Source: a bacterium (GTDB lineage: Bacteria > UBA8248). Taken from it: DNA of 64,000 nucleotides. Location of the stretch: assembly GCA_965202625.1 (NCBI GenBank), contig CBDBBI010000010.1, forward strand, positions 2,853,377-2,917,376, read 5' to 3'. Shown in pieces: positions 21,001 through 24,000 of the stretch; positions within the stretch are counted from its first letter, which is position 1; the number at the start of each line of letters is the position of its first letter. A program made the position numbers.

Positions 21001-24000
21001 CGATAGCGGACTATGACAAAGCAATCGCCCTCAATCCGCAATATGCCGAAGCCTACAACGGTCGCGGCAATGCCAAGGTTGAACTAGACCACCATCAGGA
21101 AGCGATAGCGGACTATGACAAGGCAATCGACCTCAATCCGAAATATGCCAAAGCTTACAGCAATCGCGGCGTTGCCAAGCAGGCTCTAGACAAACCTCAG
21201 GAAGCGATAGCGGACTTTAACGCAGCAACAACCCTCAATCGGCAATATGTCGCAGCCTACTACAATCGCGGCAATGCCAAGGCGGCTCTAGGCAAACGCG
21301 AGGAAGCGATGGAGGACTATGACAAAGCAATAGCCCTTGATCCGCAATATGCCGCAGCCTACAGCAATCGCGGCCTTGCCCACTTATGCCTGGGCGCATG
21401 GCGAGAGGCCGAGGAAGATTTGACGAGAGCCAGGGACGTGGGGGTCAACGTCGCTGCCGCGTTCCAGCGAGGTTACGGAAGCGTCGAGAAATTCGAGAAG
21501 CAATTCAGCGTCACCCTGCCTGAGAGCATCAAAGCCCTGCTTGAGCCGCCGGCGGAAGGCTGACGCCGCGCCCGGCTCAAGTCCCCACCCGCTCATTGGC
21601 GAGGCGCGCGATGGCGGAGGCGAGGATTTCCGCCCCCTTCACCACGTCGCCAAAGTGGGTGAACTCCTCCGGCGTGTGAGAGAGGCCCTTCACCGAGGGG
21701 ATGAACACCATGCCCATCGGGCATATTTCCGCCATGCGGCAGGCGTCGTGCACTCCGCCGCTTGAGAGCGTGAGCGCGGAGTGGCCCGTCTCGGCGGAGG
21801 CGCGGCGCAGCGCCCTCTGAACCTTCGCGGAGGTGGGGCGGACGGGCATCTCCGAGACGTCTAGGAGGCGGCCCCGCACCCCGCGCTCCTTCTCGATTGC
21901 GGCGAGGGTCGTTTCCATGCGCGCGAGGGCGCGCGTCATCGCCGCCTGGCTCCGGCTTCTGAGGTCGAAGGAGAGCCGCGCCCCTCCGGGAACGATGGAT
22001 ATCCAGCCCGGATGCGCTTCCATCTCCCCGAAGGTGAGAGTGAGGCGCTGGGAGGCGGGCGCGCTGCGCACCATGCGCTCCATCCGCACCATGAAATCCG
22101 CCGCCGCCATGCCGGCGTCCTTGCGGTAGGGCATGGGCTGTCCGCCCGAGTGGGCCGTGACGCCCTCAAAGCGAACCTCGCCCCGCGCGTAGCCCACCAC
22201 CCGATCCACGATCCCGATGGGCGTCTGCCTGGATTCCAGAACCGGGCCCTGCTCGATGTGCAGCTCGAGGAACGCCTTGAGCGCACCCTTTGGAATGCGG
22301 CAAGCGCGCACGCGCGCGGGGTTTCCGCCCATGTTTTCGATGGCCGCATACAGAGATTTTCCGGTGGGCGGATGGAGCGTTTTTCGCAAATCTCTCACGC
22401 CCACAAGGCCCGCCGCGACGCTGCTGCCGAACACCGTCATTCCGCAGGCGGATTCCTCTCCCACGAAGGCCACCACCTCGATGGGGTGATCGTGGGCGAG
22501 ACCCGTCTCGGCGATGCGCCGCGCCGCCTCGAGAGCCGTGAGGACGCCCGCCGGGCCGTCGAACCGACCGCCCGGGCTTTGCGAGTCGAGATGCGAGCCG
22601 GCCATCACGGCGGGCAGCCCCCGCCGGCGGCCCTCTTTTCTGCCGTATAGGTTTCCCACGGCGTCCACGCGCGTCTGGAGGCCCGCCTCCCGCATCCATC
22701 CCTCGACGAGGGTGCGCACCTGGTTGTAGGCCGGCGTGAACGCCACGCGGTCAAGACCCGTTTTTCCGTATTTGCCGATCTCGGCCTGGGCGTTGAACTC
22801 GCGCCTTATGCGGGCGCGGTTCGCGCGAAGGGGAAATGCGTTTGCCGGGGGCATGGCCGGGTTCCTCACGATGCGCGTATCAGGGCTAGAAGAGCTCCCC
22901 CGGCATGGGGACTTCCTCGTAGTCCTCGGGACGCAAGGGATCTTTCGGCCGAATCTCCAACATGCCGAAGTAGTGATAGGTCTGCCTTAAATGCTGAAAG
23001 GCGTGGCCCAGGGCGAGGAGCATCAATGCGCGCACGGAGATGGTGCCCATGTAGCTTGACACCTCTTTGGAGAGCGCATCGTCCCCCTCGGCGAGAAAAT
23101 CGACGAGCCGCACCTGGACTTCATCCCCGTAGGCGCAGACGTCCTCCGGTGTGCGGTAGTCGTTCGCCTTGGCCTCGTATTGCCGCACCATCTCCTCGGT
23201 GTATTCTCCCGAGGCATGGGACTGCATCACCAGGTCCGGCCGCTCGAAGGAGTGCCAGGTGAGCTGGCGGAGCGTTCTGGGCCTGCCGGGGGAAACCCAG
23301 TCGAGCGTCTCCTGCGGAATCTGGCGAATCGCTCGGCGCAAGGCGTCGAACGCCATCTCGAAGTAGCGCAGCATTTCCTCCGCAGAGAGGCCGCTCGCTC
23401 CTTCTTGCGGGACGTCAAAGGCGCTCCGGAGCGCGTCCACGTCGTAGCCCACCACCACGTCCGCCCCCCGAACGGAGACGGGCAGGGATTTCACTCCCAG
23501 CGCCTCAAGTTCCGCCTGGGCCTCCGCGTCGTTCGTGCAGTCTCTGTTGATGACTTCCAGGCCGTTCGACGAGAGAAACTCTCTCGTGAGAGCACAGGTG
23601 TATCAGCCGTGCCGCGTATAGACCTTGACCGCTTCCATGGTTTCTCTCCTGAATGATGAAAGATGCGCGAACCATACCAAAACGGCGGAGCCTGGGAAAA
23701 CGCCGGAAGGAGGGCGGCTGGCGGATGGAGCGCGCGTGCTTTACTATTGCGGAACCATCCGGGCGGAACCATCCGGAACATTATGGAACCATTCGGAATA
23801 GGGTCGCGCGTCTGGCCCGGCGGATGCCTGGAGGGTGCTCTGAAACGTCTCGGTGGTTCGTGAAGGGCGAAGCGGATGGTTTCTGCGTCCTGCGGATGGA
23901 CAACTGATTCGTCCTGCGTCTTCGGCCTGCGGACAACTGAGCGAGAAGGCGTCTTGACCGCCGCCGCGCGGCTTCTGGATGGGATGGGCGCTTCGCGCCG

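Follow-up and report, generated by a model that had tools for sequence, protein, structure and literature searches.

A 64,000-nt stretch of DNA from a bacterium of the GTDB lineage UBA8248 (assembly GCA_965202625.1, contig CBDBBI010000010.1, positions 2,853,377 to 2,917,376 of the forward strand), referred to here as the window, contains on its minus strand a gene that almost certainly encodes a selenoprotein, judging from the comparisons described below. In the encoded protein a glutaredoxin (Grx)-like redoxin domain carrying selenocysteine (Sec, U) would be fused to a DinB-family domain. The features of this gene, numbered within the window, are as follows.

22886-23638, minus strand: complete predicted selenoprotein gene of 250 codons and a TAG stop, a Sec-redoxin domain fused to a DinB domain (translation with TGA as U, and orthologues)
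23646-23650, minus strand: Shine-Dalgarno sequence AGGAG, 7 nt 5' of the ATG at 23638-23636 (read from the sequence)
23603-23605, minus strand: TGA read as Sec, codon 12, first position of U-Y-T-C within H-G-U-Y-T-C (translation and alignment)
23594-23596, minus strand: TGT codon of Cys15, the presumed resolving cysteine (invariant column C15 in alignment A1, described below)
23569-23587, minus strand: hairpin of selenocysteine insertion sequence (SECIS) type, an 8-bp stem with a GUU loop after a 15-nt spacer from the TGA (conservation and a register control)
23414-23638, minus strand: redoxin domain of Grx/NrdH-like type, residues 1 to about 75 (Pfam PF00462, profile and structure matches)
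22889-23383, minus strand: DinB/YfiT-type four-helix-bundle domain, residues 86-250 (Pfam PF12867 and structure match)
23254-23252, 23005-23003 and 22993-22991, minus strand: codons of the His triad, His129, His212 and His216 (conserved in A1)

The gene was first proposed from the sequence alone, and its reported parts were recovered as described: a ribosome-binding site, an ATG and a minus-strand frame open to 22886, with an in-frame TGA at codon 12 in the first Cys position of a CxxC motif. Translation with TGA as U runs from the ATG at 23638-23636 to the TAG at 22888-22886, and U12 is the sole recoded codon. A GGAG-type motif occurs at the equivalent place in orthologues, while the remaining upstream sequence diverges. 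The open reading frame (ORF) list made with translation table 11 holds only a 202-aa part that starts at GTG 23494, so that the first 48 residues are missed, as the original prediction had also pointed out. The product given for this gene in a public collection is likewise a 202-aa protein (P0002).

A search of 61 related genomes returned 35 full-length matches in 34 genomes, including all 22 of the genus. Each of the 35 contained exactly one TGA, which was always codon 12 in the context H-G-U-[YF]-[TS]-C, and each kept Cys15; the TGA and the frame were maintained down to 46% identity, and all 30 orthologues of exactly 250 codons had their TGA at codon 12. A profile search of a phylum sample of 51 genomes gave 39 full-length matches, every one with a single TGA, and three further partial matches, all at contig ends. 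Among the orthologues, variability at the first, second and third positions of codons 1-11 was 0.048, 0.000 and 0.245, respectively, and third positions also dominated the variation in codons 13-48. Mean identity was 88.8% over residues 1-48 vs 70.5% over residues 49-250. The third-position pattern in codons 1-11 and the conservation of residues 1-48 argue that the stretch ahead of the annotated start is translated in frame. The TGA is therefore in frame with coding sequence on both sides, a criterion by which bacterial selenoproteins are recognized.

Homologues with Cys at the position of codon 12, which the original prediction had named as a check, were readily found. In an alignment of 27 full-length distant homologues (A1), both motif positions were Cys in all 27 sequences, typically as P-G-C-S-S-C, and P53, H129, H216, R218 and Q219 were also conserved, with H212 nearly so. 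Two other explanations of the TGA were considered and rejected. Decoding as Trp (genetic codes 4 or 25) was ruled out because the aligned residue in the homologues is Cys and not Trp, and a frameshift or pseudogene was ruled out by the conservation of the frame, the TGA and the N-terminal codons. Two orthologue translations in public collections (P0009 and P0057) have W at the Sec position, within H-G-W-F-S-C; some pipeline evidently read the TGA as Trp.

Bacterial SECIS elements lie just 3' of the UGA and follow rules for spacing and for a G in the loop. A predicted stem-loop of this kind lies directly 3' of the UGA inside the coding region, where the original prediction had placed a perfect 8-bp hairpin 16 nt downstream of the TGA. 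Its 5' arm ACGAGAGA (23587-23580) and 3' arm UCUCUCGU (23576-23569) form eight perfect pairs around the loop GUU (23579-23577), and the stem begins at the 16th nucleotide after the TGA. In the 33 distinct sequences among the orthologues, 95.8% of cells were paired, with double changes at pair 26-36 (G-C to A-U in three genomes) and at pair 23-39 (C-G to U-A in one). Third-position variability fell to 0.114 in hairpin codons 18-24, compared with 0.25-0.30 in the flanks, which indicates reduced synonymous freedom in the hairpin codons. Among the orthologues, Arg19 was encoded only by AGA or AGG and Arg32 by six codons.

We then counted the eight pairs at a fixed distance from the U or C codon in the Sec genes and in 77 Cys-form genes (from 80 loci, three of which had no motif match). 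All eight pairs were present in 26 of the 35 Sec genes, seven in 7 and six in 2; the Cys-form genes had a mean of 2.9 of 8 and a maximum of 6. This register test is the decisive control that ties the hairpin to the TGA forms.

The host genome (3.09 Mb, 99.7% complete) contains all of selA, selB, selC and selD, whose absence would have spoken against a Sec reading: SelA (495 bits), SelB (identified by its wing domain, 76.6 bits), SelD (332.6 bits, its own gene with one in-frame TGA) and a tRNA-Sec (75.8 bits) with anticodon TCA, UCA in the RNA. Decoding of UGA codon 12 as Sec by SelA, SelB, SelD and tRNA-Sec, directed by the intragenic hairpin, is strongly supported by these sequence data. The genome looks selenoprotein-rich, with a TGA in 6 of 13 AhpC/TSA matches and in 7 of 16 CMD (CMD/AhpD-type) matches. 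According to the portion of a survey cited here, Nitrospinota-labelled metagenome-assembled genomes (MAGs) of GTDB UBA8248, the host lineage, are among the ten bacteria richest in selenoprotein genes, with 48-54 each (PMC13326102).

Other TGA-containing genes were observed in the same genome. The in-frame TGAs of the AhpC/TSA and CMD/AhpD-type matches sit at redox motifs, and many are followed by hairpins, many of these with GGUC-type loops. A second glutaredoxin-type selenoprotein candidate lies outside the window (G000:C10:1964509-1964682, minus strand; motif S-T-U-A-P-C) and shares the GAGAGAGUUUCUCUC hairpin with the studied gene, at an identical codon offset. Also outside the window, two adjoining peroxiredoxin-like matches occur at G000:C10:2204515-2205511 (plus strand); one of them contains a single TGA (H-W-U-P-Y-C), and in its partner (H-W-U-P-Y-U) a pair of TGAs at a distance of three codons would be a possible UxxU double-Sec motif.

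Both domains named in the original prediction, a glutaredoxin and a DinB-family domain, scored above their Pfam cut-offs: PF00462 (Glutaredoxin) at residues 4-54 with 32.9 bits against 22.9, and PF12867 (DinB_2) at residues 93-219 with 36.4 bits against 24.8. No NCBIfam model reached its cut-off for the studied protein or for three Cys forms. An AlphaFold model made with A1 had a predicted local distance difference test (pLDDT) score of 94 and a predicted template modelling (pTM) score of 0.88. Its N-terminal domain has a strand at 4-8, U12 at the start of helix 13-24 and a cis-Pro, P53, ahead of strand 54-57; helices 86-105, 123-143, 148-182 and 202-226 come after a linker of some 10 residues (pLDDT 87-89). 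The pTM score and the confidence of the linker suggest a fixed domain interface. The start of the 202-aa call cuts through the thioredoxin (Trx)-fold domain, just ahead of model strand 3.

DinB/YfiT proteins have a His triad, with one His on helix 2 and an HxxxH motif on the last helix, and include thiol S-transferases. H129 and H216 were invariant in A1 and H212 was present in at least 90% of its sequences. Of the 122 representatives with a length of 195 aa or more, 98 had all three His residues. We take H129, H212 and H216 to be metal ligands, as in YfiT. The U/C-x-x-C motif, the cis-Pro and the His triad are conserved together in the family. Among the structure matches listed, no solved chain spanned both domains as one unit.

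The redoxin domain appears closest in sequence to the short NrdH/YruB/cGrx1 type. Its best sequence match among solved structures was cGrx1 of Clostridium (Alkaliphilus) oremlandii (PDB 7c10), with a profile E value of 4.8e-18 over positions 5-84, and the structural match gave Z 12.3 with a root-mean-square deviation (rmsd) of 1.5 A over 75 residues and 35% identity. Both have a short Grx fold with Sec first in U-x-x-C. In the portion of its report cited here, cGrx1 is described as a native selenoprotein whose site is U/C-P-x-C and whose mechanism is one of attack and resolution (PMC7642778). Unlike the studied protein, cGrx1 is a stand-alone protein of 84 residues with U-P-x-C that reduces the selenoprotein MsrA, whereas the studied family has U-Y-T-C (U-F-S-C in one genus) and its redoxin is covalently fused to DinB. 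The short redoxins NrdH, YruB and BC3987 share the size, fold and CxxC position of the domain, with Z 12.7 for BC3987 (rmsd 1.4-1.5 A over 74-75 residues for BC3987 and cGrx1 taken together) and Z 11.6 for E. coli NrdH, but they have neither Sec nor a fused domain. The best NCBIfam matches, YruB (TIGR02196, 42.4 bits, cut-off 88.55) and NrdH (TIGR02194, 34.9 bits, cut-off 85.75), were so far below their cut-offs that the studied gene falls outside both families.

UXX-star (NF041212) is another Grx-like fold of selenoprotein-rich bacteria. The match to it was weak, 35.1 bits over model positions 1-66 against a cut-off of 66, and its name places Sec three residues before the stop rather than at residue 12 of 250. 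Many genomes of the phylum also contain short Grx-like frames (65-67 aa; for example G029:C1:458103-458348 and G030:C16:35156-35392) that have one or two TGAs and may be selenoproteins of the UXX-star type.

The C-terminal bundle matched 2hkv and 6iz2, both with Z 15.9 (rmsd 2.4 A over 144 and 2.2 A over 143 residues, respectively), as well as B. subtilis YfiT (1rxq, Z 13.5), M. tuberculosis mycothiol S-transferase (8f5v, with mycothiol and Zn, Z 13.0) and S. aureus BstA (5wk0, Z 11.8). YfiT, BstA and mycothiol S-transferase share with it the four-helix bundle and the H...HxxxH triad, and PDB titles indicate thiol-linked chemistry at the metal in the DinB/YfiT S-transferases. They differ from the studied protein in using a free thiol cofactor (bacillithiol or mycothiol) and in having neither a redoxin nor Sec, at 13-15% identity. 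For the glutathione pathway in the host genome, the best score of the gshB model was 63.6 bits against a cut-off of 299.05, and a GCS2-family gene is present. The N-terminal DinB domains of EgtB, OvsA and SenA gave Z 11.4-12.9 at 11-15% identity. There too the DinB bundle is the metal and substrate module of a larger enzyme, one that makes C-S or C-Se bonds, but it is fused to a formylglycine-generating enzyme (FGE)-like domain, and the link to those pathways is by fold only.

Cysteine-type glutathione S-transferases (GSTs; Omega, Lambda, DHAR) follow the same design logic, with an N-terminal Trx-fold domain that has its catalytic residue at the start of helix 1 and then a helical substrate domain. 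Their helical fold is a different one, and whole-length comparison gave Z 8.0-8.7 with rmsd 4.5-7 A; in Foldseek the template modelling (TM) score was 0.29-0.37 with rmsd above 10 A. No GST Pfam model matched the studied protein at E<=1. We treat the likeness to GSTs as analogy rather than membership.

An exhaustive search of 1.84 billion representatives returned 425 relatives at E<=0.001, and the sequences indicate that the redoxin-DinB family is real and widespread. Searches for related loci that started from one protein each, P0046 and P0051 against genome contigs and P0041 against metagenome contigs, gave no match. Cys forms occur in Burkholderiales and Alphaproteobacteria, including cultured Ramlibacter, Paraburkholderia and Caballeronia. 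Source databases name family members only 'glutaredoxin', 'hypothetical protein' or 'DinB family protein'; most relatives were called from an internal start under the last of these names, many beginning just past the motif (for example MTKEFLS...). The best 150 of the representatives clustered at 50% identity were classified as follows.

55 of 150: full C-x-x-C
82 of 150: start inside the redoxin domain, DinB domain complete
11 of 150: fragments
1 of 150: W at the Sec position
1 of 150: another residue at the Sec position

The 82 N-truncated representatives are probably Sec forms, a reading from sequence that was verified only for the studied gene's own clade and for two internally started clusters whose DNA we inspected in other lineages. 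One contained a Dehalococcoidia MAG (L152) in which ...T-C-A-U-F-H-S... lies upstream of the called start, and the other eight soil-metagenome loci (L153-L159 and L161) with P-G-U-S-S-C. The motif of L152 (at about 1453-2232) is deviant, C-A-U-F-H-S: Cys is missing from +3 and present at -2. L152 nevertheless has the same hairpin. In seven of these nine loci from independent Sec lineages, 7 of the 8 hairpin pairs formed at that register with some of the letters changed (for example CGAAGGC/GCUUUCG).

A FastTree phylogeny of 123 of the 150 representatives (residues 62-250) placed the studied protein in a clade with full support, whose 37 rows are all of the N-truncated class. This clade may be obligately Sec. 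The other deep clade mixes 45 Cys rows with 41 N-truncated rows. By parsimony the tree needs 18 changes, of which at least five are forced by well-supported branches, and the redoxin-DinB fusion is kept in both deep clades. In one metagenomic relative of 721 aa (P0169), some 460 N-terminal residues precede a Cys-form Grx-DinB unit that occupies residues 471-712; from its sequence, this protein would be a three-part fusion.

The neighbouring features that bear on function are listed below.

21577-22869, minus strand: M20 hydantoinase/carbamoylase-family amidohydrolase, downstream, start at GTG 22869 or ATG 22854 (TIGR01879 and Pfam Peptidase_M20)
24013-25542, plus strand: divergent FAD/NAD(P) pyridine-nucleotide-disulfide oxidoreductase (Pfam Pyr_redox_2 and Pyr_redox_dim)
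23751-23792, minus strand: three direct copies of ATGGTTCC, intergenic, 113-154 nt upstream of the ATG (motif count)

The M20 gene begins 16 nt past the selenoprotein stop and is probably co-transcribed with the selenoprotein gene. It scored 344.8 bits on TIGR01879 (cut-off 204), and its best specific models, allantoate amidohydrolase and ErtE, both stayed below their cut-offs (368.6 against 520 for ErtE, the second-best). An M20 gene is directly downstream in 29 of 35 related loci and in five of seven genera, with some genomes counted twice. The divergent flavoprotein, a possible electron donor, had 'FAD-containing oxidoreductase' as its best NCBIfam model (494 bits, cut-off 620) and lies upstream of the selenoprotein gene only in loci of the same genus. 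In one relative (L053), two long ORFs between the flavoprotein and selenoprotein genes matched no Pfam family; upstream long ORFs in L067 include one with Sel1 repeats and another without a Pfam match.

Transcript data came from the assembled contigs of four metatranscriptome runs. One RNA contig covers 23404-23643, including the ATG and the unchanged TGA, a second covers 23624-23775, and a third (22657-23101) spans the junction between the selenoprotein and M20 genes; stretches outside RNA contig cover, such as 23270-23400, are uninformative. A promoter scan of 21400-24100 found no promoter-like site, and the single terminator-like site given by a terminator scan of the same region falls within the M20 gene on the opposite strand.

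We consider it likely that the gene encodes a Sec-redoxin/DinB selenoprotein with the general role outlined here. DinB enzymes position a thiol and a substrate at the metal. By analogy with the bacillithiol and mycothiol S-transferases, the DinB domain would hold a metal and the substrate, and the tethered redoxin would serve as its built-in redox partner. The Sec12 selenolate might attack a sulfur, selenium or other oxidized centre generated or bound at the DinB site, the adduct would be resolved by Cys15 to give a Sec12-Cys15 selenenylsulfide, and a cellular disulfide reductase system would re-reduce it. This cycle of Sec12 attack, Cys15 resolution and external recycling is tentative in its details, and we hold it as one plausible version rather than the expected one. 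The enzyme would be a selenol/thiol-dependent reductase, or a de-thiolating transferase, for a small molecule, and it probably acts in the same pathway as the M20 carbamoylase-type amidohydrolase. With an amidase as its neighbour, the gene is more likely to serve small-molecule metabolism than general redox buffering. The original prediction spoke of a Sec redoxin/thiol-transferase fusion; the Sec redoxin fused to DinB stands, but the thiol-transferase part stays conjectural, since a strict U/C-x-x-C is the hallmark of attack-and-resolve disulfide chemistry, as in cGrx1, and favours a reductase over a transferase.

Several observations weigh against parts of this interpretation. The covariation in the hairpin is modest: double changes affect two pairs and come mostly from one clade, as many such pairs arise in 17 of 500 shuffles, and a further count of pair types was matched by all 500 shuffles. 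The 81 nt around the hairpin are no more stable than shuffled sequence (z -0.08, with 81 of 200 shuffles folding at least as well), and an Rfam scan of 23300-23800 at E<=10 returned no SECIS family and two chance-level matches. In the other Sec lineages, L154 and L155 have only 4 of 8 pairs in register, and the 3-nt loop of L156, L157 and L161 contains no G. What supports the hairpin is its conservation, its register and its link to TGA rather than its folding energy. The RNA evidence is at contig level and is weak because DNA carry-over is possible. Genera g2 and g7 have no M20 neighbour, nor does the paralogue, and Cys forms have other neighbours. When these were grouped into single-linkage clusters, with one representative of each scanned, TctC-type receptors occurred in 30, BKACE in 16, amidase in 8, ABC-transporter parts in 12 and a DsbA-like protein in 9 of 80 loci.

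That the TGA is a plain stop, and the real gene a 202-residue DinB protein from GTG 23494 behind a redoxin-like remnant or pseudogene, agrees with the public call of P0002 and with the internal starts and 'DinB family protein' names of most database relatives. We find this hardly credible, given the TGA and frame in all 35 orthologues down to 46% identity, N-terminal residues better conserved than the rest with almost purely third-position change in codons 1-11, Cys aligned in 27 of 27 full-length homologues, a full Sec machinery, a hairpin tied to the TGA forms and a start that falls mid Trx-fold domain. If the selenoprotein is real, its domains could still lack a common catalytic cycle, the Sec-redoxin acting as a general disulfide reductase (as cGrx1 does for MsrA) and the DinB domain using a free low-molecular-weight thiol and metal by itself, so that fusion serves only co-expression or loose substrate channelling. 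The redoxin matches stand-alone cGrx1, NrdH and BC3987 over its full length, as the C-domain does YfiT, BstA, mycothiol S-transferase and DR0053; no two-domain counterpart has been solved among the matches listed, and the genome holds a stand-alone Sec-Grx with the same SECIS. Such a division of labour seems unlikely to us in view of an ancient, stable fusion (425 matches at E<=0.001, kept in two deep clades), the joint conservation of CxxC, cis-Pro and His triad, and the fixed interface suggested by the pTM of 0.88 and linker pLDDT of 87-89.

Metal or metalloid handling, in which the selenol/thiol pair and His triad would bind or reduce Hg, As, Se or Te with electrons from a MerA-like flavoprotein, is very unlikely. 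The divergent flavoprotein of same-genus loci scored 375 bits on MerA besides its 494 on 'FAD-containing oxidoreductase', and there are weak sub-cut-off matches to ArsC-related models, but the cut-offs are 454 and 620. Moreover, the flavoprotein linkage is confined to one genus, most members of which have about 1.75 kb of other sequence between the genes; L067, L068 and L069, from other genera, have no flavoprotein within 3-kb flanks, and the conserved neighbour is an amidohydrolase. A more specific proposal, distinctly unlikely at present, makes the protein the founding, as yet unlisted member of a large selenoprotein family, a DinB metalloenzyme whose diffusible thiol cofactor was replaced by a tethered Sec redoxin and which, with the M20 amidase, cleaves or reduces C-S or C-Se bonds of thio-/seleno-imidazole or thiohydantoin-type metabolites. 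If true, this would be the reverse of the DinB chemistry of EgtB, OvsA and SenA, in sponge-associated bacteria. A link of the M20 gene to ergothioneine catabolism through its sub-cut-off ErtE score is a low-probability speculation, for which the ErtE/desulfhydrase literature gave nothing usable.

Sec-glutaredoxins and DinB enzymes are each already known; their fused family is uncharacterized. Judged by titles and the starts of abstracts, no paper on a DinB selenoprotein or a DinB-glutaredoxin fusion was found. The original prediction did not recognize the two-domain architecture as characterized, and we found no characterization, but the fusion is not unique, as it belongs to a large family with Cys forms in Burkholderiales. 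The prokaryotic selenoprotein family table of a 2026 review lists Grx (PF00462, UxxC). The terms DinB, PF12867, PF05163 and YfiT have no occurrences in that table, with supplements and BSepDB tables lying outside this look, and such genes may already be counted in those sources under 'glutaredoxin'. If the Sec reading is true, the DinB/YfiT superfamily would gain its first Sec enzyme, and the studied protein may be a natural case of a thiol-cofactor enzyme with a nucleophile or reductant of its own. Pipelines systematically shorten the family, with 82 of the 150 nearest 50%-identity representatives starting inside the redoxin domain. Because cultured Ramlibacter, Paraburkholderia and Caballeronia have Cys forms, the function of the family is directly testable.

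The ATGGTTCC cluster between the selenoprotein and flavoprotein genes may be a regulator-binding array. Three of the window's five copies of ATGGTTCC fall in this intergenic region, with 1.9 expected in the whole window, and a near-copy, ATGTTCC, lies at about 23780-23774 within the same ~42 nt. Near the operon, the plus strand also carries a gene with an FRG domain and tetratricopeptide repeats (TPR; 17587-19149), a gene with an FRG domain only (19282-20049) and a repeat-rich ORF of 505 aa (20046-21563) that is TPR-like by eye. Relatives have other genes at the place equivalent to 17587-21563.

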